64,000 nucleotides of DNA from Patescibacteria group bacterium (GCA_038064875.1 JBBTSC010000001.1:635004-699003); one strand, 5' to 3'; shown: positions 1 to 29,613, counted from the stretch's first letter. The notes: generated by a model from the letters alone, not told the origin. Translations and numbers: made by a program.

Positions 1-1080
1 ATCCCTCCAGTTTTTATAGGCATCTTCTGCTTTTAGAGTCAGCTTTCGATCCAATTTCTTTATGGGGTGCCAGCTTAGGCCGGCTCTTTTTCCCATGATT
101 CTGGCATTTATTGCTGACGTCACGCCATAATGACCAGTGGCTTTTTGTAGCATACGATCAAATTTGTACGAGCCATACAGTCGGCTGTCTGTGCTATCAA
201 CAAATAGCCGACCGTCAGACTGGATTTCAGGCTTAACGCCAAATTCCTTCTCAAAACCTTCAATGATGCCCTTTTGAGTAGCTTCAAGATTAAGCTTGCC
301 TTTTGAATCGTATTTTTTATATTGATCAAATTCGCTTATCGCAAGTTTGTCGGGGTCAAAAAAGTAGCCCTCACGGTATCCAGACTTGGCTGTATATGCT
401 GTCTCTATTCCAGCAGCCTGCATTTTGGCGTCAATTTTGTTAGCGACATAATTTCCAAGAATACCCATTCTCAGATTTTCAACTCCGGAGCCCTTGTTTA
501 GATAGTAAATATATCGGGCTGTACGGACGGTGCTGATATCAACTTCGCGGTCTCTGGCAGAGAGGTGAAACAACTTTAAGTTTTCACCGATATGGATGAG
601 TTCAAGGGGCCCTTGTACAATTGACGCAACAAATATCAGAATTCCAATAGCTATCGTGCCACCCATGCCAACGCCAACTTTTTTGCGCCCAAATAGAAGA
701 CGGACAAACTTTATGATTCTAGCTTGTGGTGGCAACAAGTTATCCTCTGCATTAAATAGTTCGGCATTTGTAAGACCCATTGGATTTGGCCTTTCGTTGT
801 CATATACACCGTGGTTATAGAGACCTAGCCTCTTCTTTTCTCCAGCAATACCTAAATTTCCTCTTGGGACCCCGTCTCCTTCACCAGAGCCGTCAATGCT
901 ACGGAGTGGACTGTTGCCCATTTCTGCTTGCTCAAGTTCGTCGTGAGGGATTGCAGACGATAGGTTACCGGCTGGCTGGCCATCTCCTTGGCCTTCACCG
1001 TCTATACTGTAGAGTTCAGGGTTTATGACAGGCTCTTTGTCGTCCTGCTGGTAAATCGGATCTCTTAGCGGTCTTGCCAT
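1..1080 (-). CDS. T4SS-locus membrane protein, N-terminal 360 codons only (3' end lies beyond the window edge)
   Basis: Absent from the ORF track because there is no in-window stop. I read all 360 minus-strand codons from ATG (1080..1078) down to position 1 and found no stop. It begins MARPLRDPIYQQDDKEP, has an acidic/Gly-rich head and one TM (VGVGMGGTIAIGILIFVASIV). It starts 14 nt after the VirB4-like stop on the same strand. Confidence 0.6.
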   Translation of the reverse strand, partial: MARPLRDPIYQQDDKEPVINPELYSIDGEGQGDGQPAGNLSSAIPHDELEQAEMGNSPLRSIDGSGEGDGVPRGNLGIAGEKKRLGLYNHGVYDNERPNPMGLTNAELFNAEDNLLPPQARIIKFVRLLFGRKKVGVGMGGTIAIGILIFVASIVQGPLELIHIGENLKLFHLSARDREVDISTVRTARYIYYLNKGSGVENLRMGILGNYVANKIDAKMQAAGIETAYTAKSGYREGYFFDPDKLAISEFDQYKKYDSKGKLNLEATQKGIIEGFEKEFGVKPEIQSDGRLFVDSTDSRLYGSYKFDRMLQKATGHYGVTSAINARIMGKRAGLSWHPIKKLDRKLTLKAEDAYKNWRD

Positions 1081-1094
1081 AGACTATCTCTCAT

Positions 1095-3020
1095 CTACAT
1101 TCCTGGGTGTAAGCGATTTGATACATCTATTGTACCCGATCCGCCTAGGATTTCACCAGCTTGCTCAATCTGTTTAATTTGCTCAGGATTGGTCGTAATC
1201 AGACTAGTTTCTGTAGCACTGGCAGCAATCTGAATATGGATGTGGTTCTGCCCAGCAAAGAAAAGTCCTTGACCAACAGGGAACTGACTAAGGCGTTTTT
1301 TCTCCTCACTCGTTAATTTAAATACCTGACTCAGGACATCCACAGCAGAAGTCGATTGTTTTAGCAGAATCTGCATGCTTGAGTTCGCGACAATTGCTCG
1401 GCCAAGACGACTGCCCATAAAGTCCTCAACATCTTGGGTGATCGTAGTTATACCAAGGTTGTACTTACGGGCACGTTTAGCCAGACTAAATAAGAAATTC
1501 GCGCTATCTTCGTATTTCATCAATTGCCATGCTTCGTCAACAACAAGTATTCGTTTTTTCTGATCAGCTTTGGTTTTGTTCCAGATGTAGTTAAGCACAA
1601 TATACATAGCCACAGGACGGAGTTCATCTTCCAGATCACGGATGTTAAAGACCACCATCGGATTATTTACATCAACGTTACTTGGTTGCGAAAAGATCCC
1701 AGCAAATGTACCAGTAGTATATTTGCGAAGTCTTTGCGCCAAGTTCGGCCCGGATCCACCCATATGCAAGAGAGTTTCATACAAATCACCAATGGTTGGA
1801 GGTATAGACCCGTGGGTCAAAGGGTCATTCGTGATTCCGGCCTTGGCATAGGTCTCAATCAATGCGGCGTCCAGATCAGCTTCTTCTTCTGGGCTCATCG
1901 CAGGATTCACAGTTGCATTTCCCGTATTGGACATTTGTGCAACGGCACCTCCCATCATCAGACGAAGTAGTCCGTGTAGGGTTATCAAGTTGCTTCTCAG
2001 GGCGTCCTCAGCATCTTCAGTATCAATAACTTTTGGCAGATCAAATGGGTTGATCCGAGTAGGTGAATTTAGGCTTAGCTTTATATAGGCGCCACCGACC
2101 GCTTCACACATCCTTTGATATTCATTTTCAGGGTCAATGATAAATACGTCGGTTCCCATCATCATGCTTCTAAGTGCCTCGAGTTTGACCGTAAAACTTT
2201 TACCAGCACCAGACTTAGCGAAGACCACAGCATTGCCGTTCTCCAGGGTAAATCGATCAAATATCACAAGTCCTGAGTTATGCATATTGATTCCATATAA
2301 AATACCGTTGTCCTGCGACAGCTCTGCGCTTGTGAACGGAAAACTAGTGCTAACAGCGCCGGTATTCATGTTGCGCCGAATTTGTAGCTGGTCATAAAAC
2401 TGCGGAACAGTACTGTTAAATCCTTGTTCTTGTTGCGAGCTTGCTGGCTTTGAATAGACCAATTGCTGGCCTAGAAGAGACTCAATTTTATGAGCCACGA
2501 ATTCCAGTTCATCCATCGACGAACCATAGATTGTGAAATAAAAGCCAAACCGGAAAAATCGTTCCTCACCTACCTGTAGCTTGTCTCGCATTTCTTCAGC
2601 ATCTAAGATAGCGGATTGCTTTGCCGGGTCGCGTACACGTCCCTTTTCGCTATCAAGCATGATCCCAGCTTCAAGTTGTGCGACTTTTTTTCGAAGATTG
2701 TCCAGCACAACCTGGCTTTCAACAGGATAAACGTAAATAGATAGATCAATAATTTCGTCGATGTTAACCATACTGCTTAACCATCCTGTTGCCAGTTGGC
2801 GAGGATAGCCATATACGTAGTAGGTTCTAGCATACTGAGTGCCCAGCTGGAAGTGTGTTCCAGAATATTCAATAGAACTTGGGGCGATAAAATCACGAAG
2901 CGCTGTAATCCCTTTGTTGAAAGCTGCTTCAACTTCTCTTTCCTCACGTGCTCTCTGAGCCTGGGCAATAGCTACCGGATCAGCCATCGGCTTCTTTTTG
3001 CCACCACCAAAAACAGCCAC
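1095..3020 (-). CDS. virB4: VirB4/TraE/ConE-type type IV secretion ATPase (C-terminal two thirds of a Gram-positive-type VirB4)
   Basis: Walker A VFAKSGAGKSFT and Walker B RILVVDEAWQLM. The N-terminal pattern DFIAPSSIEY...GYPRQLATGWLSSMVNIDEIIDLSIYVYP is typical of Gram-positive VirB4 proteins. The GTG start overlaps the upstream stop (TAGTG), with AAGGAG 8 nt upstream. Confidence 0.9.
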   Translation of the reverse strand: MAVFGGGKKKPMADPVAIAQAQRAREEREVEAAFNKGITALRDFIAPSSIEYSGTHFQLGTQYARTYYVYGYPRQLATGWLSSMVNIDEIIDLSIYVYPVESQVVLDNLRKKVAQLEAGIMLDSEKGRVRDPAKQSAILDAEEMRDKLQVGEERFFRFGFYFTIYGSSMDELEFVAHKIESLLGQQLVYSKPASSQQEQGFNSTVPQFYDQLQIRRNMNTGAVSTSFPFTSAELSQDNGILYGINMHNSGLVIFDRFTLENGNAVVFAKSGAGKSFTVKLEALRSMMMGTDVFIIDPENEYQRMCEAVGGAYIKLSLNSPTRINPFDLPKVIDTEDAEDALRSNLITLHGLLRLMMGGAVAQMSNTGNATVNPAMSPEEEADLDAALIETYAKAGITNDPLTHGSIPPTIGDLYETLLHMGGSGPNLAQRLRKYTTGTFAGIFSQPSNVDVNNPMVVFNIRDLEDELRPVAMYIVLNYIWNKTKADQKKRILVVDEAWQLMKYEDSANFLFSLAKRARKYNLGITTITQDVEDFMGSRLGRAIVANSSMQILLKQSTSAVDVLSQVFKLTSEEKKRLSQFPVGQGLFFAGQNHIHIQIAASATETSLITTNPEQIKQIEQAGEILGGSGTIDVSNRLHPGM

Positions 3021-3997
3021 TACTTCATCTCCTTATCAAGATTAGGTTGAGGTGCTTGCCCTTCACCTTTTGTCACAACAGGAGCCTGTAGATTATTAAA
3101 ATCTTTTAACTGTTGGCGGGTAGCAGTATCTGGGTTGTAAGCATCGTAGTACAGTTCAATTAGTTCCTGAGTATCGAGTGGCAATCCTTGCACGCCACAT
3201 TGCATCAATCCTGATAGAGTAGCTTGCACACGATTTCGAAGTTCGGCTTTTGCCTCTTCAAGATCCGATTCTGTGATCACAACGTGTGTAGATGGCTTAC
3301 TGAAGACATTGAAGATACCATCAAGCAAGTTCTTGCTAGAAGTAAGTGGCTTTTGTTTCTGACTCTCAGTTAGTGGGAAAAACGGGATAACAATGTAAAA
3401 ATGTTTGTCCATGATGTTTGTTTCAGCTGCCAGTGAATCGATATAGCCAATGTAGTCTTCCATCAGCATAGCCAGTAGCATATTGTCATGTTCTGAGCGG
3501 ATTTTATCCAGTTTCTCCAGATATGGACGAATATCAACTTTTTGAGAACGGACAAAGATCTGGATAGGATAATACAGTGAATTCAAGAAACCCTGAAAGC
3601 TAAATTCTACACCTTCACGCTCTTGAGGACTCATCAGATCAAAGTTGATAGACTTGACCATTACCACAGATCGAAATGAGCCGTCATTCATGATAACGAT
3701 ACCATCGCGGATTTCAGCAATATGAAGTGTGTTCTGAGTACTGTTTGGGTTAATAACAGGCTTATTAGCATTCGGATTTTGAATAGGCGCATTTGGATTC
3801 CCCGGGATTACGGCTCCAGGGTTTAGGTCAGAAGTGAATGTTCCTCGATTTACTGCTTGTGTTGGTTGGGATTTCGCACCTGATTGCGTCATAATCGGAT
3901 CCACAAAAACAGCACCTTTCTGCCCAGTGGTTTGTCCTGCTGGATTGGAATTTTGTGGCTGATTCTGTGACTCTGGTTTCATGTTTGTTGTTTCCAC
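3020..3997 (-). CDS. T4SS protein: N/Q/P-rich disordered head plus a VirB4 N-terminal-domain-like module (putative detached N-domain of VirB4)
   Basis: The first ~95 aa are low complexity (QNQPQNSNPAGQTTGQ...NPNAPIQNPNANKPVINPN). They are followed by IAEIRDGIVIMNDGSFRSVVMVKSINFDLMSPQEREGVEFSFQGFLNSLYYPIQIFVRSQKVD. This matches my recollection of the extreme N-terminus of ConE/Tn916-Orf16-type VirB4. The gene is translationally coupled to the ATPase gene. Confidence 0.6.
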   Translation of the reverse strand: METTNMKPESQNQPQNSNPAGQTTGQKGAVFVDPIMTQSGAKSQPTQAVNRGTFTSDLNPGAVIPGNPNAPIQNPNANKPVINPNSTQNTLHIAEIRDGIVIMNDGSFRSVVMVKSINFDLMSPQEREGVEFSFQGFLNSLYYPIQIFVRSQKVDIRPYLEKLDKIRSEHDNMLLAMLMEDYIGYIDSLAAETNIMDKHFYIVIPFFPLTESQKQKPLTSSKNLLDGIFNVFSKPSTHVVITESDLEEAKAELRNRVQATLSGLMQCGVQGLPLDTQELIELYYDAYNPDTATRQQLKDFNNLQAPVVTKGEGQAPQPNLDKEMK

Positions 3998-4006
3998 CCT
4001 TGTTAT

Positions 4007-4999
4007 TTATCTTAACGAAATAACAACTTCTCCGTCATCAAGACCAGATTTTTTATTAGCTTGTCTGGCGATCGTAGCGACATCAAGGTCGTCATTATTG
4101 ACTAAGCTCATTATAGCAGGATCATCTGTCGACGTCGAAGATCCTGGCTCAGGCAATGTTGTTGAACTGGCAGAAGATGAGCTACCTGTTTTTCGGTCAT
4201 GCAGATGTGGTTTGCCGAGTTCGGTTTTCTCACGTAATTTTTGTGTCAAAAGTTGCTCATCGATATTAGAGGCAGTGTTATTTGAATTGACCGGAAAGCT
4301 AAATGCAGGCTTCTGTGGAGTGAAATTTGGTGGAGGAGTTTGGTTAACTTCTTCGAGTGACTCACCAGAACGAAGTCGATCTAGTTTGTCTATACTACGT
4401 TGATGTAGAGCATCGGTGCTTGCTTGCAAACCTTGGCTTATTGTCTCTTGTCGCACTTCGTACATATCGACAATTTGATCGCTAAGTTCTGATACAGGCT
4501 CAGGTATAACAGGGGTGACCAGTCGATCACTCACAAAATTATCCGTTTGCATTTGGGCTTCAGCTAGACTAGCATGCTTGACTGCCCAGCCACGACTATC
4601 AATAGTTTCTGCTAATGCCTTTAGCCTACTACTAACCTCACCCTGGCTTAAGTTGTTTGTCAGAACTTTCTCAATTTTCTTTGGCGCAGTTACTTTGACT
4701 AATTCTTGAACGCCACTTTGGTCCCAAATACGCTTTTTAGTCATAAAGTAAAACCGTATTTTTGCTAATACCCATATTTCTGTTGGCTGATCTTTGCTCC
4801 AAGGTATTGCTAGAAAGGCACCAACGAGCATTGGTGGAACAAATAAGATTAAAGCCCAAGAAAACCCTTTAACAATTGCAAAAAAACTAAGATACCCAAA
4901 AAAGGCAGCCCCAGTCCCAAATATGAACTGTTTTAGCGTCAGCGGACCGATGAACTTGTCTTCAGCCTCGATATCTTGGATAACCTTATAAGTAGCCAT
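4007..4999 (-). CDS. PrgI/VirB3-like two-TM T4SS membrane protein with a long C-terminal extension
   Basis: The N-terminus YKVIQDIEAEDKFIGPLTLKQFIFGTGAAFFGYLSFF, a second TM and WVLAKIRFYFMTKKRIW follow the PrgI-family layout (charged head, GLTxRQ-like motif, TM hairpin, basic tail). It sits directly upstream of the VirB4 genes (9-nt gap). Confidence 0.7.
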   Translation of the reverse strand: MATYKVIQDIEAEDKFIGPLTLKQFIFGTGAAFFGYLSFFAIVKGFSWALILFVPPMLVGAFLAIPWSKDQPTEIWVLAKIRFYFMTKKRIWDQSGVQELVKVTAPKKIEKVLTNNLSQGEVSSRLKALAETIDSRGWAVKHASLAEAQMQTDNFVSDRLVTPVIPEPVSELSDQIVDMYEVRQETISQGLQASTDALHQRSIDKLDRLRSGESLEEVNQTPPPNFTPQKPAFSFPVNSNNTASNIDEQLLTQKLREKTELGKPHLHDRKTGSSSSASSTTLPEPGSSTSTDDPAIMSLVNNDDLDVATIARQANKKSGLDDGEVVISLR

Positions 5000-5068
5000 A
5001 GGATCATTTTACCATAAGGGTTGTTCCAGGGGCGCAGGAAAAAGCAAATCATCATTGCAGACATAACA

Positions 5069-5097
5069 TTGACAAAAATCAAAATCTATGCTAGAAT
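5069..5097 (+). promoter_or_regulatory. Sigma-70-type promoter for the 5153 gene
   Basis: TTGACA (5069..5074), a 17-nt spacer and TAGAAT (5092..5097), about 55 nt upstream of the ATG at 5153. Confidence 0.5.
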
Positions 5098-5152
5098 TTA
5101 CTATAGTCAAACAAAAAATAAACACCAATTAATATTTGAAAGAATTAAGGCC

Positions 5153-6556
5153 ATGCCACCAAAAGCTCAACAAGCAAACGCCCAACAATCACGTGAAGCC
5201 GGTATGAAAGAACAACTTAAAACGGTTCTTTTTAACGCAGGGCATGAAATGGCAGTTGCTGCAAACGAGGCGCATGACCAACAGATGACTTTTGACGCAC
5301 TAAAGCCCATAGTAAAACAAGGCGCACGTATTGCCATACAAAACGCTGGAGTTCTGGCTAGCGAGAAGTTTGATGAGTATGTAGAAAAAGCCGGCGAACA
5401 CTTTGGGAAAGCTGAGGAATTTGGATTTCCAAAAAGAGATGAAGAACTCCCCAAGGGCTACAAGGCGATCAAGCCATCAGAGAAAGATCCCAACCCAAAT
5501 CTTGATGACACTACTACCCTGGCAGAGCGCATGAACACCCCAGAATTTGTGAAGTGGTTTGAAGACACTCAGCAGTCGATGACTGACTATGTCAACGAAA
5601 CATTTGGTGGAATATTACTTAAAGAAAAAGTAGTAGTTGATGTGCCAGTCGATGGCAAGATGACCAAAGAAGAGAGAGAGGTTGATAAACTTGTCTTGGC
5701 GATTCCGGAAGACTTTGGGCTGGTTACTTACCGTGAAGAAGCAGGAGAAGACGGCGATGGTGAACCTATCTATGAAGATAAATGTGCAGTCGTACTCATT
5801 TCTGATCATGGCATAAACCTGTACAAGCAAGGGTACGGTATTGACCTAAAAGACCCTGCTACCAATATTAACAAAAATTCGTCAAAACCTAAGTCTAAAT
5901 TTGCTAAAAAACTAGCCGAAATTATGCCAGAGAAACCAGCCCCGCCGTATAACCCTACCCTACTCGACCTAAAAGACCCTGCGCAGGAACAGATAGATTT
6001 ACAAAAAGCCAAAGCTAACAGAAAGCCCTGGGAAGGCCCAGTTGACCCGGATGCATTCCACGAAAAGGCAGTCAAAAAAGCGAAAGGTCGTGAAAAACAA
6101 TCATGGGATGATCTTATGGAAATGAAAAAAGACCCACGGTTCATGATGGAGATGACTGATAGCTCAGGAAATGTCACACAAAAACTTGATGCTAGGAGTG
6201 GTCTCTCAAGTGCCTTGGCAGAACAACTAGCTAAGACCAACCCAAGGATAAAAGAAGATCTCTGGGTGACAGGAGACGATCCACAAGAAACAAGATCTAC
6301 TCTAGCCAAAGTCAATAAAGGCAACGCGCTGATGTTCGGAAATCATGCCAATTATGATCTGATTCACGGAAATTTTCGTTTTCGTCCAGTAGTTGTCTGG
6401 GATGATCCAGAAAATCCGAGGACTAAATCAGATGAGCCTACCATTGAGACTGAACGTATTTATGCAAAAGACTTGACCCACTTAGTTGATGGTGTGCCAG
6501 TAGAACTTAGAAAATCTACTTGGGAAGAGCCATCTGAACAAGACGAAGAAGACTAA
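5153..6556 (+). CDS. Orphan highly charged soluble protein embedded in the T4SS locus
   Basis: I prefer ATG 5153 (AAGG 5 nt upstream, downstream of the promoter) over the track TTG start at 5021. The 467-aa product is K/E/D/P-rich with no TM or signal peptide. I recognise no catalytic motif. The C-terminus is acidic (EEPSEQDEED). Confidence 0.7.
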   Translation: MPPKAQQANAQQSREAGMKEQLKTVLFNAGHEMAVAANEAHDQQMTFDALKPIVKQGARIAIQNAGVLASEKFDEYVEKAGEHFGKAEEFGFPKRDEELPKGYKAIKPSEKDPNPNLDDTTTLAERMNTPEFVKWFEDTQQSMTDYVNETFGGILLKEKVVVDVPVDGKMTKEEREVDKLVLAIPEDFGLVTYREEAGEDGDGEPIYEDKCAVVLISDHGINLYKQGYGIDLKDPATNINKNSSKPKSKFAKKLAEIMPEKPAPPYNPTLLDLKDPAQEQIDLQKAKANRKPWEGPVDPDAFHEKAVKKAKGREKQSWDDLMEMKKDPRFMMEMTDSSGNVTQKLDARSGLSSALAEQLAKTNPRIKEDLWVTGDDPQETRSTLAKVNKGNALMFGNHANYDLIHGNFRFRPVVVWDDPENPRTKSDEPTIETERIYAKDLTHLVDGVPVELRKSTWEEPSEQDEED

Positions 6557-6577: not shown

Positions 6578-9448
6578 CTATTTCTGTTCTTCAGGCGGAG
6601 GTGTTGGTGGTTTAACGGCGTTAGGGTCGAGTCCTTGGCGTATCATTGCTTGTTTTTCGGCATCGCTCATATTGCTACGACCATATTCACGTCGGTACTG
6701 CCTGAAGACAGGATCGTCACGCTGTTTTTCAATAAATTCATTAAAGCTTATTGCTCCACCACCTTCACCGCCCGGTACTTGAACGCCAAGAACACGAGTA
6801 CCAAAGATCTTGCCGTTCTTAGATGAGGCTCCACCCATGGCGTCGTAAAGTCCTGCCACTCCAGCAGTTCTTTGCTTGAAGTATTCTTCTGCAGTGAGCT
6901 TGAGCCCAGTTTTGCCATCCGTAAATGATTTGCCAGCTTGGTAATCTGCAAAGGCATTTTGGACTTCGGCAGACATAACTTTTGCAATATTCTCAGTTGC
7001 CTCACTCTTACCATTTGCAAGGGTATATGCAGGCTGTCCTTCAATTGCCCCGGCGATAAGCTCGGTGTTGGCACTATTAAGTGCTGCTTGCTTGCTGGCC
7101 TCAGTTGCGTTCGGGTCGTTGTAGGCTTTGACTAAATTGTTAAATACGCCAGCGTGGGTGCCAAAGCTGGCTCCACTGATGTCATATCTTTTGGCTCGCT
7201 CGGCATTGGCTCGACCACTGGCGATCAGGTTAAAGGCTTTAAGTGAATCCTGTCCGCCATTTGTAGCTTCGATAATTGCTTGGTGCATCTCACCAGGACC
7301 TTTGCCAAACCCAGTACCAGAGCCGGCGATCTCGTTAATAGCCAGGCTTTCGACAACGTCCGCTGAGGCGTTAGACATAAGTCGAGAGCCTGCCATTGCT
7401 GTACGTTCAGCTTGTTCCTGACTGTAACCCTTTTCATTTCTAAGGAAATCAACCATAGCTGTTCGTTTCTCTGTGGCTGAGCCTTTAGTCTTCATACCTT
7501 TAAGCACTGCATAGTAAGCGTCATCGTTACCGTGAAGAATTTGTGCGTCATAACCGTCTTTGCCCAGTTCGGCTTGTCGACGAAGGTCATGCCCTTCTTT
7601 AACCACTCCAGCATTAAGCCTATAGCCTCCTCTAAATCCTGAGCCATCTTTTTTCAGTCCGGCGGCAACTCCACCAAAGAATTGGTTGCCAGTCATACCT
7701 CTGTTGATACGCCTGTCTCTAGCTTGGTTACGAGCTTTACCGAGGAAGTTATTAGGGTCTTGGCGAGCCTTGCCAATAGCGTCGCGAGCTCTGCCAGACA
7801 AACCTTGAGCTCTATCATTGGCAAGCTTGGCAACTGCGCCGATCGCTCCACCGGCAAATTTGAACGCAAATGGTATCAAAAATAGTGGCAAGTACACAGC
7901 AACCACACCTACCAATATCGCTGCCAGTCCAGCCGTATCATTGAGCGATTCGCTATTGGCTAGAAATATTGCTGCCATAATATCTGACATAGCGAAGATA
8001 ACTGCAATAATAGGATATACAAACAGAGTTTTTGTAAAAAGATTCCACCAAGATTTAAAGTACTTCTCGGTGCCTGGCAGTATGAAACAGGCGATAGCAA
8101 TAGGCGATACAACCGTCAGAAATATAATCAATCCATATCTAATAACCAGGGTCGCCAGAACAGCAATACTGACGAGTACCAGAGATATCATCAGAGGGCC
8201 AAGTAAGCCGAGTGTTGTAACAGCCGTATTGGCAAAACCTTGAACGGCGATAACTTTACCAAGTATCCCCGCACCAATACCACCAGCAGCCACCCCGACA
8301 ACACTCTCTGTGTTAATAGGTAATTTGGGATCATTAAAGGTCCCAGCCGATATAAAAGGGTCTTTTAGGAGTTGGTTGATGCCGGTTCCCACGACCGTCG
8401 TTACATCTATAGCTACGAGACACAAATATATAGACAAGTTGATGCCAATCACTCCGACTAATATCCTCGGCGCCACCTTCTTGGCGGTGTAGGCGTCAAC
8501 TGCATTGAAGCCCCACCCTTCAGTTAGCTGCGATAGTACAAGAATCAACATAATACCAATAAGCAAAATATTGCCAATAGTACGGAATCTCTGCCACGCT
8601 TCGTAAGACGGGTTGCCACCTTCTGCTTGTATCGGAGAGCCCTGCATCAATGGTTTAACTAGGTCCTTAAAAGCAAAGTCAGTAAACTTTGCGCCGATAT
8701 CTATCAGTGGACACAAAATCCAAGACAATGGGTTAACAGAAACTTCACAAGAAGCTTCGGTTTCGCTACTACCGCCACTGCCTGATCCACCTCCCCCACT
8801 GGCTACGACAGCTGGATCGTTGACGGGTTTATCACTTTGCACAGGTTTGCCATCAGCATTAATAACTATTAGTCGCGCATTTCCTACACGATCAATTTGC
8901 TTCTTACAATTTGCTAATGCAGTAGGTTTGATCCCCCAGTAATCACCCGGGAGAGTTTGAAACATACTAGAATCACATCCCAGTGCATCATTGAGTTGGT
9001 TCTGCTTTTCTTTACATTTGTCTTCATTAGGAGAACCGTCTTTGAATTTCTTGCAGTCGTTGCTAGATAACACGCCATGCTGTGCCAGGGCTCTGTTGTA
9101 GCAATCTTTATATTCACCTTGCTTGGTGTACCATTTTTTGTCACCGACACTGGAGTCTTCTGGGTCAGTTCCAATAAATTTTTGATAAAATAATTTGTCA
9201 CTACAGCCCAGCTTGTCCTTAAGTAAGTCTTGCCAATCTTGACAGGTGAATTTGTTTTCGGCACCGACGTCAAATCGATGATCGAGATTATTCAGATCAT
9301 GACAATGCTCTGCAACAAGCAAAAGTATATTGTTCTGCTCGTCCGCATAGACAGGTTTTGGCGATGAGATAAAAGAGGGCGCCAAGTTAAGCACTACAAG
9401 CAGAGTAGACAATGAGCCAAAAATAGCCAATTTCTTGAAAGAAACCAT
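6578..9448 (-). CDS. Giant VirB6/TrbL-like polytopic membrane protein with a Cys-rich ectodomain and a large C-terminal soluble domain
   Basis: Signal peptide (LAIFGSLSTLLVVLNLAPSFISSPKPVYA), then a ~200-aa Cys-rich region and a Gly/Ser linker (ASGGGGSGSGGSS). About 300 aa of successive TM helices follow, then a ~400-aa G/A/K-rich soluble tail. The position and topology fit the VirB6 role. Confidence 0.65.
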   Translation of the reverse strand: MVSFKKLAIFGSLSTLLVVLNLAPSFISSPKPVYADEQNNILLLVAEHCHDLNNLDHRFDVGAENKFTCQDWQDLLKDKLGCSDKLFYQKFIGTDPEDSSVGDKKWYTKQGEYKDCYNRALAQHGVLSSNDCKKFKDGSPNEDKCKEKQNQLNDALGCDSSMFQTLPGDYWGIKPTALANCKKQIDRVGNARLIVINADGKPVQSDKPVNDPAVVASGGGGSGSGGSSETEASCEVSVNPLSWILCPLIDIGAKFTDFAFKDLVKPLMQGSPIQAEGGNPSYEAWQRFRTIGNILLIGIMLILVLSQLTEGWGFNAVDAYTAKKVAPRILVGVIGINLSIYLCLVAIDVTTVVGTGINQLLKDPFISAGTFNDPKLPINTESVVGVAAGGIGAGILGKVIAVQGFANTAVTTLGLLGPLMISLVLVSIAVLATLVIRYGLIIFLTVVSPIAIACFILPGTEKYFKSWWNLFTKTLFVYPIIAVIFAMSDIMAAIFLANSESLNDTAGLAAILVGVVAVYLPLFLIPFAFKFAGGAIGAVAKLANDRAQGLSGRARDAIGKARQDPNNFLGKARNQARDRRINRGMTGNQFFGGVAAGLKKDGSGFRGGYRLNAGVVKEGHDLRRQAELGKDGYDAQILHGNDDAYYAVLKGMKTKGSATEKRTAMVDFLRNEKGYSQEQAERTAMAGSRLMSNASADVVESLAINEIAGSGTGFGKGPGEMHQAIIEATNGGQDSLKAFNLIASGRANAERAKRYDISGASFGTHAGVFNNLVKAYNDPNATEASKQAALNSANTELIAGAIEGQPAYTLANGKSEATENIAKVMSAEVQNAFADYQAGKSFTDGKTGLKLTAEEYFKQRTAGVAGLYDAMGGASSKNGKIFGTRVLGVQVPGGEGGGAISFNEFIEKQRDDPVFRQYRREYGRSNMSDAEKQAMIRQGLDPNAVKPPTPPPEEQK

Positions 9449-10258: not shown

Positions 10259-10642
10259 ATGCTTAACATCTTATATCAACTTCAAATCTTTGCAGCCAAC
10301 GGTGAAACTGCAGCCGAGGCGACTTGTCAGAAAGGAAGTTTCTTTTCCTTCCCTACTTGGTATCGGTATCTGCAGGTTGACCCTAAGTACTGTAGTCCAA
10401 AGATAGATAATATAAATGACATTTGGCTTGTTTTGCTTGCAATTGTAGAGATCATGATTCGGCTTGGTGTTATTTTGGCCATCATTTTTGTGATTTACGG
10501 AGCAGTTAGTTTGGTGATTGCACGTGGTACTCCAGAAAAAGTTAACACGGCTCGAGATATGATAATAGATGCGCTCACCGGTCTTGCAATAGGGCTCGTG
10601 GCGATTACGCTCATAACTTTCTTAGGCAGGAGTTTTAACTAA
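10259..10642 (+). CDS. T4SS pilin-like paralog 2
   Basis: Cys pair (C23, C45), then TM1 WLVLLAIVEIMIRLGVILAIIFVIYG, loop ARGTPEKVNTARD and TM2 ALTGLAIGLVAITLITFL. The N-terminal leader is weak. Confidence 0.65.
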   Translation: MLNILYQLQIFAANGETAAEATCQKGSFFSFPTWYRYLQVDPKYCSPKIDNINDIWLVLLAIVEIMIRLGVILAIIFVIYGAVSLVIARGTPEKVNTARDMIIDALTGLAIGLVAITLITFLGRSFN

Positions 10643-10643
10643 T

Positions 10644-10958
10644 ATGTACTACGTAGATTTACTACTTTTAGCTATTACTAAACCGAAGAATTGTGACGAC
10701 CCAAATAATTGTCTAACTACTTTACCGGAAGTCAACGCCTCTGATGGAACAGCAGAGAAAATTTTTGGTATTGTGTTTGGCACCATTGCTGCTGTTGCCG
10801 TATTGATCATTGTGCTGTCAGCGATGAACTGGGCGATTCGTGGTGGTGACCCTGAAGTTATCACTCGCTCACGTAAAGCCATTGTATATGCAGCCATTGG
10901 TCTAGCTATTGCTCTATTGTCAGAACTCTTGGTACTAACACTTTTGGACAGGTTATAG
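10644..10958 (+). CDS. T4SS pilin-like paralog 3
   Basis: Starts 1 nt after the paralog 2 stop. Cys pair NCDDPNNC, TM1 IFGIVFGTIAAVAVLIIVLSAM, loop RGGDPEVITRSRK and TM2 AIVYAAIGLAIALLSELLVL. Confidence 0.65.
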   Translation: MYYVDLLLLAITKPKNCDDPNNCLTTLPEVNASDGTAEKIFGIVFGTIAAVAVLIIVLSAMNWAIRGGDPEVITRSRKAIVYAAIGLAIALLSELLVLTLLDRL

Positions 10959-10960
10959 TA

Positions 10961-11368
10961 ATGAAATTAAAACTTCTATCACTCGCAATTTTATCGACGT
11001 TTTTCGTTATTAGTGCGCAAGCTACAGTTGGTGCGGTTGATCTATTCAAAGGAACTTGTCGTGGTGGTGACACAGCAGACTCAACAGTATGTAAAGACCA
11101 GGCAGAAATCAGTGATAATCCTGGGATAGATGACAACCCTATTTATGGGCCAAATGGAATTATAACGACAGTGACAAATATATTGACCGCTGTAGTAGGT
11201 ATTGGCGCCGTTATCTCAATCGTGTATGCGGGGACAAAGCTCATTTTTTCCGGATCAAATCCACAAGAAGCAAACAGCGCGCGTGAGAGAATCATCTATG
11301 CTTGTGTGGCGCTAGTATTTGTAGCCATGGCCCAAATAATAGTAAGATTTATAATCAATAGGATATAA
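10961..11368 (+). CDS. T4SS pilin-like paralog 4
   Basis: Signal peptide MKLKLLSLAILSTFFVISAQA, Cys pair (GTCRGG...TVCKD), TM1, loop FSGSNPQEANSARE and TM2 IIYACVALVFVAMAQIIV. Confidence 0.7.
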   Translation: MKLKLLSLAILSTFFVISAQATVGAVDLFKGTCRGGDTADSTVCKDQAEISDNPGIDDNPIYGPNGIITTVTNILTAVVGIGAVISIVYAGTKLIFSGSNPQEANSARERIIYACVALVFVAMAQIIVRFIINRI

Positions 11369-11376
11369 TTACAGAT

Positions 11377-11778
11377 ATGACAACAATAATTACACGGATG
11401 TTACTGGCAACTTTTCTCTTCTTTGGAGTGTTGCAGATTTCCTCTGGTCCACCTGCGTTAGCACTAATAGGTTCTGGCGCGAAAGAACAGGCTTGTAAGG
11501 GCGTGGAACTTGACAATGCTACAGGGGCCAATTGTGGCAAGGATTCTAGCAAAGAAACGCAAGATATTGTCCAAACAGTTATTAATATTCTCTCTGCAGT
11601 GGGGGGAATCATAGCGGTCATCGTTATCATAGTGAACGGTATTAGGTTAGTTTTGTCATCTGGAGACTCTGCGAAAGTCAACACGGCTCGCTCAGGGATA
11701 ATCATGGCTGTAGTTGGTTTGTTGGTCATTGCCCTGGCGCAGGCGCTGGTAAGATTTGTAGTAAGTAGAGTCGCTTGA
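11377..11778 (+). CDS. T4SS pilin-like paralog 5
   Basis: Hydrophobic leader, Cys pair (QACKG...ANCGK), TM1 ILSAVGGIIAVIVIIVNG, loop SSGDSAKVNTARS and TM2 GIIMAVVGLLVIALAQALV. Ends in TGA. Confidence 0.7.
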   Translation: MTTIITRMLLATFLFFGVLQISSGPPALALIGSGAKEQACKGVELDNATGANCGKDSSKETQDIVQTVINILSAVGGIIAVIVIIVNGIRLVLSSGDSAKVNTARSGIIMAVVGLLVIALAQALVRFVVSRVA

Positions 11779-11839
11779 TGATCGATAAGTATTGTGCTAT
11801 AAAATAAACAGAGATATATAAGAAAGGAAACTTCTAAAA

Positions 11840-12262
11840 ATGAAAAAATTTATCAAACAAATAGTAACAACACTGAGCTTGGCGATGGTCATGCTTCTTC
11901 CCGCTCTTGTGTCAACAAGTGCTTTCGCAGCAAATATTGACGGTAGTTTATGTAAAGGCGCTGATTTGAAATTCAGTGGCGATGCAAGTAGTGCAGATTG
12001 TAGCACTACAGAACAAGCTGGTGCTGGCCTGGACAAATTGATCACAGATGTAGTTAACATCTTTTCAGTTGTTGTTGGTGTGGTCGCTGTGATTATGATC
12101 ATCTACGGTGGCTTCCGCTACATTACATCTGGTGGTGATTCAGGAAATGTTACTAATGCAAAGAATACTATTCTTTATGCATTAGTCGGACTTGTTATAG
12201 TGGCCCTAGCTCAATTTATTGTAAAATTTGTGCTTAACAAAGCCACCGGCCTCGGTAGCTAG
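11840..12262 (+). CDS. T4SS pilin-like paralog 6
   Basis: Signal peptide ending AFA, Cys pair (SLCKG...ADCS), then VVGVVAVIMIIYGGFRYITSGGDSGNVTNAKNTILYALVGLVIVALAQFIV. Confidence 0.75.
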   Translation: MKKFIKQIVTTLSLAMVMLLPALVSTSAFAANIDGSLCKGADLKFSGDASSADCSTTEQAGAGLDKLITDVVNIFSVVVGVVAVIMIIYGGFRYITSGGDSGNVTNAKNTILYALVGLVIVALAQFIVKFVLNKATGLGS

Positions 12263-12273
12263 AGGGTAAGAGA

Positions 12274-12711
12274 ATGAAAAACATACTCTTAACGCTAGCA
12301 GTCAGTTTTGGGCTGTTTGGTTTGTCACTTGGTGTAGTTAACAACGGGACAGCAGCTGCCTCTACTAAAGGAGAGCTCTGTAGTGGAGCTAACCTAGACA
12401 TCAGTGGTGGAAGTGGCGCGGGCTGTGGCGACAGTAGTGCCTGTAGTGATGATGATAAAAATAATGACGAAGGTTGTGATTCAGAAAAGCTTAATAAGCT
12501 CATTAATACTGTGGTGAATGTTTTTTCCGTTATTGTCGGGGTAGCCGCAGTTATCATGATCATCTATGGTGGATTTAGGTATATTACGTCAGGTGGCGAC
12601 TCAGGGAACATCACCACCGCAAAGAATACTATTCTTTATGCATTAGTCGGACTTGTTATAGTGGCCCTAGCTCAGGGCATCGTCAGGTTCGTACTCAGTA
12701 ACCTTAAATAA
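12274..12711 (+). CDS. T4SS pilin-like paralog 7
   Basis: Leader, 4 Cys in a G/S/D-rich segment, then IVGVAAVIMIIYGGFRYITSGGDSGNITTAKNTILYALVGLVIVALAQGIV. It shares a 56-nt identical tract with paralog 6. Confidence 0.75.
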   Translation: MKNILLTLAVSFGLFGLSLGVVNNGTAAASTKGELCSGANLDISGGSGAGCGDSSACSDDDKNNDEGCDSEKLNKLINTVVNVFSVIVGVAAVIMIIYGGFRYITSGGDSGNITTAKNTILYALVGLVIVALAQGIVRFVLSNLK

Positions 12712-21397: not shown

Positions 21398-22373
21398 ATT
21401 TTCTGAGTATTACCCAAGAAACTATTCCTGCCAGTCCTAATATAGTTGCAAAAGCATATTGAATATACGCCAATTTAGAGACAAAACCATATCCAAGTGG
21501 CAATAAGATATCCTTGCCGAACTGATTTTGCCCAAGGAGTGAGTTGCTTGGATTCTTGCTATAGAGCAACAAGGTCACTGTTGCAAGAACGACTAAGGCG
21601 ATCGCGTTTTTTAAAGACGTAGAATAAATAGCTCGTAGCTTTCTATTTCTATGGCGATATAAGAATCCACCTAGCACTAAAATGAATATTATTAAGTTGG
21701 TCCAGAAGACTTTCTGAGCCAGCTTGAAGTATGTCTTGTATGCTTGCGCTTTTGTGAGAGCCTGCCCAATACCTGTATCTGCTAGATTTATCCTGTCTTT
21801 TGAAAGTGGCGTGTCACTCCTGTTTAACTGTTCTCTAAGCTGATTTGTCAGATTCTCAACACTGGTTCCTTGAGGTAGGCACGGCGTGTTGAGAATATTA
21901 TAGTCGTTGCCCACAGAACGCATTTGTGCCAGGCTACATTGAGGGAGCCCAGCCGTTCGTTCTTGAGTATATGCGACCAATTGATTCACAATTTTAACTT
22001 TACTCTCAGTATAGTCGATAACCCCATCTAGCCTGCCATTGGGGCTATTCAGCCATCCATAGACACCATCTATAAGTACTTCAACATATCTTTGAGAGCT
22101 CTCTGGGCTGATTGAATTCTTAAAAATTTGCGCAATTCTTGGGTCTTGCAGAGGCAAATCAGTCGGTTGATTCTTTTTTATCTCAGATATTGTCTGATCA
22201 ACGATTGCTCCAACAAGTTTGTCGTATACCCCCGTACCTTGGATAATTGTTTTTACTTGATCTGGCTGAGTAATGACAAATTGAAAATAATACGTAATAG
22301 GCAACAGAATGATTAGAAAGGCTATTAGCCAATTGAGCAACCAGTCCCCTATCTTGATTAGTATACTTGGCAT
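21378..22373 (-). CDS. Hypothetical membrane protein
   Basis: N-terminal TM (WLLNWLIAFLIILLPITYYF), a ~190-aa extracytoplasmic region, and three C-terminal TMs. I prefer ATG 22373 (MPSILIK...) over the track start 22433. Confidence 0.55.
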   Translation of the reverse strand: MPSILIKIGDWLLNWLIAFLIILLPITYYFQFVITQPDQVKTIIQGTGVYDKLVGAIVDQTISEIKKNQPTDLPLQDPRIAQIFKNSISPESSQRYVEVLIDGVYGWLNSPNGRLDGVIDYTESKVKIVNQLVAYTQERTAGLPQCSLAQMRSVGNDYNILNTPCLPQGTSVENLTNQLREQLNRSDTPLSKDRINLADTGIGQALTKAQAYKTYFKLAQKVFWTNLIIFILVLGGFLYRHRNRKLRAIYSTSLKNAIALVVLATVTLLLYSKNPSNSLLGQNQFGKDILLPLGYGFVSKLAYIQYAFATILGLAGIVSWVILRKSKKPVS

Positions 22374-22395
22374 GTTTTTAGTATATACTAGACAT

Positions 22396-22584
22396 ATGTT
22401 TAGCGGACCAATAATTGGACTCATTGCTGCCATCTCAGCCTCAACATGGATTTATACATGGTCCATGCGCCGAACCGGCAATAACACACAAAATGCCGGG
22501 ATTATTTCAGCAATAGCTGGGATCATCGTTTTCTTCATGGTTTGGTCTATCATCGCGTTAATTGACGCCACCCTAGGCGACTAG
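22396..22584 (+). CDS. Possible small two-TM membrane protein
   Basis: MFSGPIIGLIAAISASTWIY...GIISAIAGIIVFFMVWSIIALI. The start is uncertain (track start 22309). It is divergent from the preceding gene. Confidence 0.35.
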   Translation: MFSGPIIGLIAAISASTWIYTWSMRRTGNNTQNAGIISAIAGIIVFFMVWSIIALIDATLGD

Positions 22585-22632
22585 CCACTTACGGCTAGAA
22601 TATTTCCATTTTAGCGGAGAAATTGTTATTAT

Positions 22633-23484
22633 ATGGCTATGAATGAAGTGGGGCTGGGCGAAGCGTTGCAACAAGCACGTAAAAATAAAGGTTTGACCCA
22701 GCAACAGCTGTGTCAGGTCACTGGTCTTAGTTATTCCACTCTTGCAAAAATTGAGCGTGGAGCTATCAAATCACCGTCAGTATTTACCGTCGCCCAGATC
22801 ACAAGCGCCCTTGGGATCAGCATAGACGAAGTTGTCGGTTCAGTCCCCTCTAAGACTCTGACGAACCAGAGAAAGACTGCAAAAAATGGCGTAAAGTTCG
22901 TTTACTTTGACATAAACGGTTGCTTGGTTCGATTTTATTACCGAGCATTTACTCAAGTTGCACTTGATTCAGGTGCTTCACCAGAACAAGTAGAAGAGAT
23001 ATTCTGGCGCTACAACTCAGAAGTGTGTTCTGGCAACTTAGAACTCGAGCAGTTCAATAAGAAGATAGCAGAAAAGATCAATTTACCAGGCTTCAAGTGG
23101 CAAGAATACTACCTAAAGGCAGTTTCCCCTATAAAAGAAACAGCCGAAGTTATTGCTTGGGCAACACAGTACTACGGTCTAGGAATATTAACTAACATCA
23201 TGCCAGGTCAAATAGACGACGTTATCAAAGCAGGACTCATACCAGACATTCAGTACGATCAGATAATTGATTCTTCAAAGGTAGGGCTGATAAAGCCAGA
23301 TCCAGCAATTTACGAACTTGCCACAAAGCGAGCAGGAGTTAGTCCTGAAGAAATACTGTTTGTTGACGACGAGAGAGCTAACTTAACAGAAGCCAGCAAA
23401 CAAGGTTGGCACACACTTTGGTTTGATGCTTTTGACACAGAAAAATCCGCACAGAAAACCCGCGACGCTCTCGCTTTTAATTAA
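22633..23484 (+). CDS. XRE-type helix-turn-helix domain fused to a HAD-superfamily hydrolase domain
   Basis: The N-terminal HTH is LGEALQQARKNKGLTQQQLCQVTGLSYSTLAKIERG. The C-terminal HAD motifs are FVYFDINGCLV (motif I, DxN variant) and LFVDDERANL (motif IV). Confidence 0.7.
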   Translation: MAMNEVGLGEALQQARKNKGLTQQQLCQVTGLSYSTLAKIERGAIKSPSVFTVAQITSALGISIDEVVGSVPSKTLTNQRKTAKNGVKFVYFDINGCLVRFYYRAFTQVALDSGASPEQVEEIFWRYNSEVCSGNLELEQFNKKIAEKINLPGFKWQEYYLKAVSPIKETAEVIAWATQYYGLGILTNIMPGQIDDVIKAGLIPDIQYDQIIDSSKVGLIKPDPAIYELATKRAGVSPEEILFVDDERANLTEASKQGWHTLWFDAFDTEKSAQKTRDALAFN

Positions 23485-24858
23485 CTAAGCTTTCTCAATA
23501 GCGATAGATAATTCTTTTACAATATTTCCTATATCTGCTGCGCCCGCCTTTGCTTCGCCCCAGATCCTGACAACAGGCTCAGTCCCTGAAGTTCTAACAA
23601 CTACCCGCCCAGAGTCTCCGAGCTGATCTTTGATTTCGCTAATTTTAGCTTGAATCTGCTCATTTTCCTCGATCTTTGGAGCGTTAGGATCAATACGAAC
23701 AGCAACTTTCGCCTCTGGCCACAGGGCTAGATTTCTATAAATATCCGAAAAGGTCTTTCCGCTTTTAGCGACATATGATGCAAACCAGGCGGCCATTCGT
23801 ACTCCATCACCGCTAGATAGCCAGTTCGTATCAACATGATGTCCAGTAAATTCTCCACCTCGCGTCCAGTTATCGCCTTTAGCTTGTCGAGCTACAAGCC
23901 CTGCGGTCACTGCTGTATCTCCGTTTTTACATTGCTCAAATTGAATTCCTCGTGCGCGCAAAGCCTCAACCAAGCCAGTGTTTGTGTAAAGAGTTCCCAC
24001 TATACCAGGCTGACCTTGAGCGAGCGCATAAAGTACATGGTTACCGGTGATTTCACTCATCAAATTTCCGTCAAAACCGACGCCCATCATACGATCACCA
24101 TCTCCATCATTTGCAATTGCACCTACAAAGTTAGGATCAGCTGTTATCTCAAGGTGACTTTTCAAATAATCTTTCACGCCCTCTAGATTAGCAGCACCAC
24201 AGTTTTCGTTAATATTGCCAGCCCCATCACATGCGAATTCATGTACCACAGCACCAAGTTCTCGCAGTATCTCAGGAGTAAATTTCATAGTTGCTCCATT
24301 AGCCCCATCAACAACAAAAACCTTGTCTTTTAGTGGTTTTATGCCAAATTCTTGTTCGATACTTTGCACAACTTGGGTGATGTACCAATCTGCAAGCTCT
24401 GGTTTTTCCACTACTGTTCCAGAACCATTTTTGGTAATTGTCTTGTCAAGGTTCTGCCAATAGATATTGCTAATATTTCCAGCTTCTTCGTTGGTGATTT
24501 TGTCTCCAGAGATTGCAGCTTTCCAGCCATTGTCTGTGTATGGATTATGACTTGCAGTGATCATAACTGCCAAGGCTTTGAACTGTCCCGCAATTTTAAA
24601 AGTTGCTGGCGTAGGAATTACGCCCAAGTCCCAAACTTCTATCCCTGCATCTACTCCAGCCTGCACCACCGCCTTTGCTAGTATCGAGCCCGATGGACGA
24701 CTGTCTCGTCCAACAACCATGACTTTATATTGGCTCGCGTATTGGATTAGCGCCTGGGTAAGGCCATATAGAGTCTCGCTGTTGAGTAGTACTGACCCAG
24801 CTTTTTCAGTGTATTCTCCACGAAATCCATCAGTGCCGAAGAGAGATTTTTGACCCAT
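23485..24858 (-). CDS. glmM: Phosphoglucosamine mutase / phosphohexomutase
   Basis: Active-site loop TASHNPYTDNGWK, metal-binding DGDGDR and sugar-binding GEFTGH. The start overlaps the valS stop (TAATG). Confidence 0.88.
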   Translation of the reverse strand: MGQKSLFGTDGFRGEYTEKAGSVLLNSETLYGLTQALIQYASQYKVMVVGRDSRPSGSILAKAVVQAGVDAGIEVWDLGVIPTPATFKIAGQFKALAVMITASHNPYTDNGWKAAISGDKITNEEAGNISNIYWQNLDKTITKNGSGTVVEKPELADWYITQVVQSIEQEFGIKPLKDKVFVVDGANGATMKFTPEILRELGAVVHEFACDGAGNINENCGAANLEGVKDYLKSHLEITADPNFVGAIANDGDGDRMMGVGFDGNLMSEITGNHVLYALAQGQPGIVGTLYTNTGLVEALRARGIQFEQCKNGDTAVTAGLVARQAKGDNWTRGGEFTGHHVDTNWLSSGDGVRMAAWFASYVAKSGKTFSDIYRNLALWPEAKVAVRIDPNAPKIEENEQIQAKISEIKDQLGDSGRVVVRTSGTEPVVRIWGEAKAGAADIGNIVKELSIAIEKA

Positions 24859-27419: not shown

Positions 27420-27481
27420 ATACAGAGCATTATAACAGATTAGGAACATCTTCAAACAACCTATGTATAAGTCAAAGACTA

Positions 27482-27510
27482 TTGACAAAATAGCAAATAT
27501 TTGCTATTAT
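27482..27510 (+). promoter_or_regulatory. Consensus promoter with a 16-bp perfect palindromic operator in the spacer (copy 1)
   Basis: TTGACA (27482..27487), a 17-nt spacer and TATTAT (27505..27510). The palindrome TAGCAAATATTTGCTA spans 27491..27506. The 25 nt TTGACAAAATAGCAAATATTTGCTA recur exactly at 30919. Confidence 0.7.
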
Positions 27511-27547
27511 ACTGAACGATACATCAAAACAAAAAGGAACAACGACA

Positions 27548-28147
27548 ATGCCAAGAAAGCAACCAAAACATAATAGATCACCAATCATAGCTACAGGCTT
27601 GGTAGTAGGGGCTGTAAGCCTATTAGCAGGACATGAAATTGGGCAGAATACTGGTAATGCAAATCGTGTTCCACCTCTTAAAAACGTACCTTCGCGTGCT
27701 GATCTCGGAGAGGCTACTATGACACAACAGGCAGAATATCTTGATGCTAAGAGACTAGAGCAAACAGCTAATAAGGTGAGTAAGCTCACTCCGGAATCTG
27801 TTGCAAAAGCCAAGGATGTGTCTGATGTAGCATCTAACATTCAGGATGTACTTTTTGGGTTGCACGCAAAAACAGGGGCAGAAATGCCAGAAATAGCTGA
27901 TGAGTACTTGCAAGAAGGAGTTATTGAGGCCCTCAACGCTCAAAATATCTACTTTTTACCGAGGGAAGATGATAGCCCTCATTGCTTCAATATGTTTAGC
28001 AAAACAGACGCTAATAATGTCGAAAGTGTTTATGTGCCATATCTGAGCCCAGACGACCCAAGTGTTCGTATTGGAGAAGTTGTGGCTGATCCTCGAGAGC
28101 AACAGCGTTCAGTTGTTGGTAAAAGTGCTGTCCATATAAATCAGTAA
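27548..28147 (+). CDS. Hypothetical single-pass membrane protein
   Basis: 199 aa with a basic N-terminus and a TM (IIATGLVVGAVSLLAG). I recognise no motif. It is driven by promoter/operator copy 1. Confidence 0.6.
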   Translation: MPRKQPKHNRSPIIATGLVVGAVSLLAGHEIGQNTGNANRVPPLKNVPSRADLGEATMTQQAEYLDAKRLEQTANKVSKLTPESVAKAKDVSDVASNIQDVLFGLHAKTGAEMPEIADEYLQEGVIEALNAQNIYFLPREDDSPHCFNMFSKTDANNVESVYVPYLSPDDPSVRIGEVVADPREQQRSVVGKSAVHINQ

Positions 28148-28362
28148 CCAGTTCTGTTTGAACGTGGAAATAGGTAAAAAAGCATACATCAATATAGGCC
28201 TTTGAGTGCTCGCTTGCAAAAGCTTATATCGTCATACCCTTGAATGTCAGTTTTGGCTTTTATTTTTCGCGCCCGGGGTAGCTACCCAGTTTGCTTTTTC
28301 GTACGTTTTTGTTTTCAATTTTCAGTATATTCCTAAAACATAAGCGATGCAAGTATAATTTT

Positions 28363-29427: not shown

Positions 29428-29613
29428 GCACCGCCTTTGCCTGCTAGCTCGCAGAGCGAGCTACTCTGCAAAGCCTCTTGGACTACAATAAATTTTTCTT
29501 TTGAGATACTCCCTTCACTGTACTGTTGGTACAGCTCGGTCTGTTTCTCAAAGAGAAAATTCATTCTAGTCTCAAGTGCGGTGGCTGTGATCATCTCTGG
29601 TATTATATGTCAT

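Follow-up and report, generated by a model that had tools for sequence, protein, structure and literature searches.

The 64,000-nucleotide stretch of Patescibacteria group bacterium DNA analysed here (JBBTSC010000001.1:635004-699003, hereafter the window) probably carries a chromosomal type IV secretion system (T4SS) of Saccharibacteria in which the VirB4 motor is encoded as two polypeptides, a TrsD-like chain providing the initial ~220 residues of the N-terminal domain (NTD) of VirB4 and a second chain comprising the rest of the NTD and the ATPase. Both genes are on the minus strand. Open reading frame 1 (ORF1, 3020..3982) encodes the TrsD-like protein of 320 amino acids (aa), annotated as 'hypothetical protein' and identical to MEK7626375.1; ORF2 (1095..3020) encodes a VirB4-family ATPase of 641 aa with a GTG start, identical to MEK7626374.1 and lacking the first part of the NTD. 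These two proteins belong to a metagenome-assembled genome named 'Patescibacteria group bacterium', and the closest named relatives are Candidatus Saccharibacteria. Judged by sequence comparison, the two-gene arrangement is real, is conserved in every related genome examined and is no artefact. It is the already published arrangement of TrsD and VirB4, the norm for the lineage and not peculiar to this genome.

Tiling of one VirB4 by two open reading frames

Four independent NCBIfam models of VirB4 place ORF1 before ORF2 with no overlap. On CD1110 (752 positions) residues 88-202 of ORF1 occupy 2-117 and residues 39-594 of ORF2 occupy 185-732. The corresponding stretches are 19-125 and 234-734 on VirB4_CagE (792 positions), 101-233 and 284-893 on VirB4_plasma (894 positions), and 118-183 and 301-742 on TraC-F. 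The same order is found in a single natural protein. An exhaustive homologue search covered 1.84 billion cluster representatives, and the best 150 representatives of 50%-identity clusters were inspected; 149 of these are short (110-478 aa) and one, P0226, is long (898 aa). Residues 86-308 of ORF1 align to P0226 13-228 with 35% identity and residues 22-615 of ORF2 to P0226 312-889 with 51% identity, the two parts being joined in P0226 by an 80-aa P/A-rich linker. The profile coordinates and the colinearity with P0226 indicate that the two ORFs tile one VirB4. The initial annotation had proposed a tiling of this kind, and it is supported here, ORF2 alone falling short of the family model by starting at position 185 of CD1110.

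P0226 is encoded in three independent samples (4001..6697 in L083 and 1431..4127 in L084 and L085) with prgI directly upstream, and is therefore a real natural fusion. It looks like a secondary re-fusion. The nearest relatives of its own N-terminal part are also short, the closest being a separate protein of 222 aa with 66% identity. The 120 best homologues of ORF1 are all of 255-358 aa.

ORF2 scores 359.1 bits against NCBIfam NF045971 (CD1110 VirB4), above the cut-off of 325 bits (E 4.7e-107). Its residues 234-609 (1194..2321, minus strand) form the C-terminal RecA-like ATPase domain and match the VirB4 C-terminal structure 4AG5 (E 8e-49); residues 425-574 align to TrwK 581-733. This domain contains the Walker A motif SGAGKS (residues 270-275, 2196..2213, minus strand) and the Walker B motif ILVVDE (residues 491-496, 1533..1550, minus strand). 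Residues 22-233 (2322..2957, minus strand) are the second half of the VirB4 NTD; this half opens at a conserved D-F-I-A-P-S..G..Y.RT..V.GYPR..GWL block. No complete NTD is found within ORF2, the first ~185-280 model positions being matched by ORF1 instead. In TrwK of R388 the NTD comprises residues 15-400 and the C-terminal domain (CTD) residues 400-823 (PMC9259494). As residues ~22-233 of ORF2 are still NTD, the break lies inside the NTD (between positions 118 and 185 of the CD1110 model) and not at the boundary of NTD and ATPase. The initial annotation had described the split as one between an N-domain and an ATPase, which has to be corrected, the ATPase beginning only at residue ~234; its statement that the 641-aa frame starts at the segment following the ORF1 part, with the DFIAPS...GYPR block, agrees with the profile coordinates.

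The nearest family of ORF2 is MPF-FATA (CD1110, TrsE) by profile score, and not ConE or Tn916 Orf16 as had been suggested, with MPF-FA judged here by the TcpF model and not by ConE or Orf16 themselves. TcpF is the only MPF-FA model of NCBIfam that was matched, with 18.8 bits against a cut-off of 1100 bits and E 3e-4, compared with E 4.7e-107 for CD1110.

The conserved domain of ORF1 (TrsD or 'TraC-like') comprises residues 86-308 (3074..3742, minus strand; numbering of the 325-aa maximal frame) and is, by sequence homology and predicted fold, the N-terminal module of VirB4, homologous to the first part of the NTD. Matches of the single ORF1 sequence to the NCBIfam VirB4 models are weak (E 1e-4 to 1e-3). 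Among 35 diverse homologues of ORF1, 34 matched TrsD, 31 matched VirB4_plasma, 29 matched CD1110 at its N-terminus and 11 matched VirB4_CagE, the best E values being 1.8e-13 for VirB4_plasma and 1.6e-9 for TrsD (NCBIfam). An AlphaFold2 model of residues 86-325, built from an alignment of 94 sequences, reached a mean predicted local distance difference test (pLDDT) of 76.9 with a core of ~90. Compared with the PDB by Foldseek, its 14 best matches were all TrwK/VirB4 chains of R388 (E 2e-4 to 6e-3, probability 1.00), with query-normalised TM-scores reaching 0.49 over 188-234 columns; the match ranked behind them had E 0.34. A sequence search of PDB chains with ORF1 alone or with the 35-sequence profile gave no VirB4 and only chance Hsp70 fragments, so the kinship to solved VirB4 proteins is visible only at the level of the fold. 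The earlier assignment of the C-terminal part of ORF1 to the VirB4 N-domain therefore stands on the N-terminal model positions and the TrwK fold, with the domain starting at about residue 86 (NSTQN) and not at about 100.

Against the NCBIfam TrsD model NF041427, ORF1 scores 22.6 bits (E 7.6e-5), below the curated cut-off of 200 bits. With such a score ORF1 is a distant relative of staphylococcal TrsD and not a member of the subfamily as defined by NCBI. All 240 listed homologues have a precomputed assignment to the Pfam family PF26593 'TraC-like', among them P0001, the representative of the 90%-identity cluster that includes the window protein. ORF1 and two homologues were assigned to no family by a local scan (hmmscan, Pfam-A), even with E values up to 10, the copy used possibly lacking PF26593; for the same proteins the precomputed table and the local scan disagree. 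No mention of PF26593 was found in the literature searched.

The N-terminal head of ORF1 (residues 6-85 in the same numbering, 3743..3982, minus strand) is a low-complexity region rich in N, Q, P, T and G. The disordered N/Q/P-rich head described at first is thus a real feature: the homologues have heads rich in P, Q, N, A and G, hypervariable in length and sequence, measuring 18-119 aa in close Saccharibacteria and 4-230 aa family-wide. No transmembrane segment was predicted in ORF1 or in ORF2.

The junction and its conservation

The junction (3018..3034, minus strand) is formed by AAGGAG, a spacer of 8 nucleotides (nt) and TAGTG. The stop codon TAG of ORF1 (3022..3020) gives its G as the first base of the GTG of ORF2 (3020..3018), an overlap of 1 nt, and the Shine-Dalgarno motif AAGGAG (3034..3029) is found 8 nt upstream of the GTG within Lys-Glu codons of ORF1; the sequence coordinates confirm the layout first described. 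In the frame of ORF2, TGA and TAA stops leave four sense codons (GGA GAT GAA GTA) before the GTG, and an earlier start of ORF2 is therefore impossible. The GTG aligns with the ATG of the orthologues (M-A-F/V...). On its sequence, the layout is that expected for translational coupling. The maximal frame of ORF1 has 325 aa from GTG 3997 and 320 aa from ATG 3982 (MKPESQNQ...). The ATG is most likely the start, because it matches MEK7626375.1 and the N-termini of the homologues; the upstream frame annotated at 3020..3997 is thus open from its GTG, with a probable start 15 nt further in.

Conservation was examined in the best 80 loci of a contig scan, all from species-representative genomes of Saccharibacteria, a set that is silent on other phyla. 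Both genes were included in 78 of the 80, giving 79 complete loci with the window. A fused gene was identified in none of the 78 complete loci (0/78), and in all of them the break is at the corresponding point, which bears out the genuine two-polypeptide arrangement originally proposed. The start of virB4 is within -8..+12 nt of the upstream stop in 67 of the 79 loci (~85%), with a stop/start overlap of the TAATG type in 34 junctions and of the ATGA, GTGA or TTGA type in 10. A GGAG-type motif precedes the start in 62 of the 67 tight junctions, usually inside conserved Lys/Arg-Glu codons. Chance does not account for a junction of this kind.

An indel introduced by sequencing or assembly, or a frameshift that recently made a pseudogene of a single virB4, has a practically negligible probability as the origin of the split. 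Frameshift errors are frequent in metagenome assemblies in general, and this is all that speaks for an error here. Identical ORF1 and ORF2 proteins were each recovered on 7 contigs from three repositories (NCBI, ENA and Logan), and the split recurs in each of the 78 species-level relatives with complete loci, across thousands of protein clusters and on plasmids of cultured organisms. In addition, ORF2 has its own start and Shine-Dalgarno motif at a position conserved in the orthologues. An artefact was rejected on this repeated recovery and on the conserved split.

A single-chain VirB4 produced by programmed ribosomal frameshifting or by stop-codon read-through at the junction is also highly improbable. 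The 1-base overlap of the frames and the runs of five T and five A just downstream would suit it, and the initial annotation had held slippage possible at these runs. However, the start of virB4 relative to the stop of the trsD-like gene is offset by 2 modulo 3 in 55 loci, by 1 modulo 3 in 7 and in frame behind the stop in 5, and the orthologues, differing in frame, share no single frameshift or read-through event. The stretch open in the ORF2 frame has only the four codons before the GTG and no slippery heptamer. The T5 and A5 runs themselves encode the conserved N-terminus MA-V/F-F-G..KKK, and an N-terminus like that of ORF2 is also present in TrsE of pSK41 and in a plasmid VirB4 of B. thuringiensis. 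Further loci contain insertions between the two genes. Recoding was rejected on the variety of frames, the short open stretch and these intergenic insertions, and slippage is both unneeded and unlikely.

The loci outside the -8..+12 nt range were 12 of 81 (L003, L005, L007, L008, L011, L022, L033, L037, L038, L040, L042 and L079). Eleven of them have 16-470 nt between the genes, often just after a retained ATGA stop/start overlap, and L079 has a 14-nt overlap rather than an insertion; the junction region is at about 4680-5180 in most of these loci. Most of the insertions contain non-conserved ORFs of 20-47 codons, and the product of the one in L040 is a 23S rRNA-intervening-sequence protein (PF05635, E 3e-34). 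It seems that DNA has been inserted at the junction repeatedly. Since insertions between the genes are tolerated, covalent continuity of the two chains is clearly not required.

Proposed mechanism and genomic context

The gene order is prgI (virB3-like), trsD-like and virB4, with the stop of the prgI-like gene 24 nt before the ATG of ORF1. The trsD-like and virB4 genes would be co-transcribed, as their spacing suggests, and ribosomes ending ORF1 would re-initiate on ORF2 by translational coupling, giving near-equimolar chains. The TrsD-like domain would pack non-covalently on residues 22-233 of ORF2, rebuilding a full VirB4 NTD. In R388 the NTD is responsible for VirB3 binding and VirB4 dimerisation (PMC9259494), and residues of VirB3 are no more than a few angstroms from residues 9-19 and 54-65 of TrwK, equivalent to the TrsD-like chain, and from its residues 219-226, 248-260, 284-323 and 361-394, equivalent to ORF2 (PMC9259494, supplement 4). 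These contacts were taken from the co-evolution sheet with measured distances, Supplementary Table 2 holding interface areas only and no residues. As VirB3 contacts both parts of VirB4 in R388, PrgI probably bridges the two chains and would clamp them to the membrane; with no predicted transmembrane helix in either ORF, anchoring to the membrane would come from PrgI.

Alternatively, the TrsD-like protein could be an accessory factor in its own right, a paralogue of the VirB4 N-terminus of ancient origin that acts as adaptor or regulator, for example through its disordered head, and does not complete the VirB4 fold. Most TrsD homologues of Gracilibacteria lie away from virB4 (PMC12102498); the head is hypervariable and in Bacillota plasmids is replaced by a transmembrane-like helix, which suggests lineage-specific roles; and 12 of 81 genomes tolerate insertions between the genes. 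However, ORF2 lacks exactly what ORF1 supplies, its coverage starting from 185-284 in CD1110, VirB4_CagE and VirB4_plasma and from 301 in TraC-F, and the natural single-chain P0226 is colinear with both ORFs. Moreover, if a paralogue had joined an intact VirB4, there would be no truncation of that partner at one and the same point in pSK41, in Bacillus plasmids and in Patescibacteria. An accessory role is thus considered unlikely.

Some observations weigh against a VirB4 motor of two coupled chains. The insertions in 12 of 81 loci indicate that tight translational coupling is not obligatory, and co-transcription is deduced only from the spacing of the genes. The split point at about TrwK 170-200 is approximate, coming from alignment offsets and not from structural superposition, and the score of ORF1 on the TrsD model is far below the cut-off.

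On a further reading, to which only a low probability is given, the VirB4 motor in Patescibacteria and in systems of the pGO1 type would be an obligate heteromer with the TrsD-like module, detachable and N-terminal, held to the ATPase chain by the VirB3/PrgI clamp. The variable head, a transmembrane-like helix in two Bacillota plasmid homologues, would then be a lineage-specific handle tuning assembly, membrane attachment or substrate and host specificity independently of the ATPase, and the fission would be functional and not neutral.

The association of ORF2 with a T4SS is seen in the PrgI gene (4007..4999, minus strand) and in six tandem genes of VirB2-like T4SS pilins (10259..12711, plus strand; PF18895 T4SS_pilin, TrbC/VirB2). 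The PrgI-family (VirB3-like) membrane protein has 330 aa, of which residues 5-91 form the PrgI domain (Pfam PF12666, E 8e-12); the ~240 residues beyond the profile are a low-complexity C-terminal extension rich in S, T, D, E and P. The pilin array, unusually large for one beside a T4SS, comprises six paralogues of 104-145 aa, all of which combine a signal peptide with a hydrophobic hairpin at the C-terminus, matching PF18895 with E 1e-4 to 5e-16 and in some cases also TrbC/VirB2. A polytopic membrane protein of 956 aa with a signal peptide (6578..9448, minus strand) matched no profile of Pfam or NCBIfam; its position suggests a VirB6-like translocon subunit, by analogy with PMC12102498. Between this gene and the prgI-like gene there is an ORF on the opposite strand (5021..6556, plus strand; 511 aa, rich in K, E and D) with no significant match in Pfam or NCBIfam, the sole match being Aspzincin_M35 at a sub-threshold E of 0.024. 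Another ORF (1..1080, minus strand; at least 360 aa) begins ~15 nt past the stop of virB4 and runs off the start of the window; it has one hydrophobic segment and no Pfam match. Southlakia epibionticum is reported to have genes for peptidase and lysozyme following virB4.

Genes located farther away are of the housekeeping type, encoding valyl-tRNA synthetase, phosphoglucomutase, TsaD, Mur ligase, GroEL and alanine racemase, and with such genes around the T4SS genes the locus is a chromosomal one. The GC skew, negative at 22-28 kb (-0.07 to -0.14), becomes positive from 30 kb onwards (+0.1 to +0.2), and gene orientation flips too. This switch (window about 22000..30000) could be a replication origin or terminus, or a mere strand switch; of the ORFs from 21 to 34 kb, six were profiled and none matched DnaA.

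Comparison with known systems

The T4SS of Patescibacteria was described by Quinonero-Coronel et al. 2025 (PMC12102498). TrsD is reported as the most abundant T4SS component in Patescibacteria, with 2,272 homologues of which 1,664 are associated with VirB4, and as remotely homologous to the N-terminal portion of VirB4. Outside Patescibacteria it is reported only in the pGO1 subclass of MPF-FATA, with no assigned function. For Southlakia epibionticum ML1, the TrsD homologue beside virB4 is among the genes given as essential, from transposon sequencing cited there, and the T4SS is reported as essential for the epibiotic lifestyle of Saccharibacteria, with cargo unknown. The window shares with that system the Saccharibacteria lineage, the chromosomal setting among housekeeping genes, and the VirB6-like, PrgI/VirB3, TrsD, VirB4 and VirB2-like pilin components; nothing substantive differs. 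The word 'split' is absent from the article, and the passages of it consulted say nothing of the overlapping stop and start codons, of where in the NTD the break falls, or of the rare fused form. The homology of TrsD and VirB4 is not mentioned in the main text of Guglielmini et al. 2014 (PMC4027160) either, the statement stemming from PMC12102498, which cites it.

The details added here are the exact tiling, the location of the break within the NTD, the conservation of the overlapping stop and start codons, the existence of a natural though rare fusion, and the fold match to TrwK. In annotation pipelines the first chain becomes a 'hypothetical protein' and the second a 'DUF87 domain-containing protein', and the N-terminal module is thereby mislabelled or missed. 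Modelling or purification of this machine should include the TrsD-like chain, probably with PrgI. Beyond annotation and modelling the arrangement raises no new question.

The same arrangement is found in plasmids of Bacillota. A tblastn search of plasmids with the ORF1 domain matched 387 records, mostly from Bacillus. The plasmids of Pontibacillus and of B. thuringiensis Bt407 encode a separate 'hypothetical protein' between prgI and a VirB4 of 620-660 aa, with the trsD-like genes overlapping virB4 by 11 and 14 nt. The VirB4 proteins of the Pontibacillus and Bt407 plasmids, like TrsE and ORF2, start immediately ahead of the D-x-I-A-P...GYPR...GWL block. The TrsD-like proteins of Pontibacillus (L001, 4869..5693) and B. 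thuringiensis (L002, 4845..5831) have a transmembrane-like hydrophobic helix where Saccharibacteria have the P/Q/N-rich head.

The TrsD-TrsE pair of pGO1/pSK41 (TraD-TraE; MPF-FATA) has the gene order of the window, with VirB3-like TrsC (25492..25899), TrsD (25886..26569, 227 aa) and the VirB4 TrsE (26584..28602, 672 aa) in pSK41. TrsE starts at the same homologous position as ORF2 behind a short Lys-rich N-terminus, and TrsD aligns with the ORF1 domain along its whole length, with only ~20% identity. The differences are that trsD and trsE of pSK41 are 14 nt apart whereas the genes of the window overlap, and that TrsD of pSK41 has neither the P/Q/N-rich head nor the transmembrane-like helix. 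In addition, pSK41 is a conjugative plasmid with relaxase and coupling protein whereas the system of the window is chromosomal; neither protein was matched among the window ORFs that were profiled, which are not all of its ORFs. The fission appears common to Patescibacteria, pSK41 and plasmids of the Bacillus group and is presumably old.

Single-chain VirB4 proteins, such as TrwK of R388 (PDB 7O41, 7OIU, 8RTB) and those of the CD1110/PrgJ type, have the domain content of ORF1 and ORF2 summed in one polypeptide of ~750-830 aa, whereas in the window the chain is interrupted inside the NTD. ORF2 has in common with them the Walker A and B motifs, the 4AG5-type CTD and a VirB3-like gene upstream. 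The VirB3-VirB4 fusions of some conjugative systems represent the opposite event, fusion and not fission, and prgI is separate in the window; none was found in Patescibacteria according to PMC12102498. These fusions also show that the covalent connectivity of the modules VirB3, VirB4-NTD and VirB4-CTD is plastic. In Patescibacteria the split is the normal state and single-chain re-fusions are rare.

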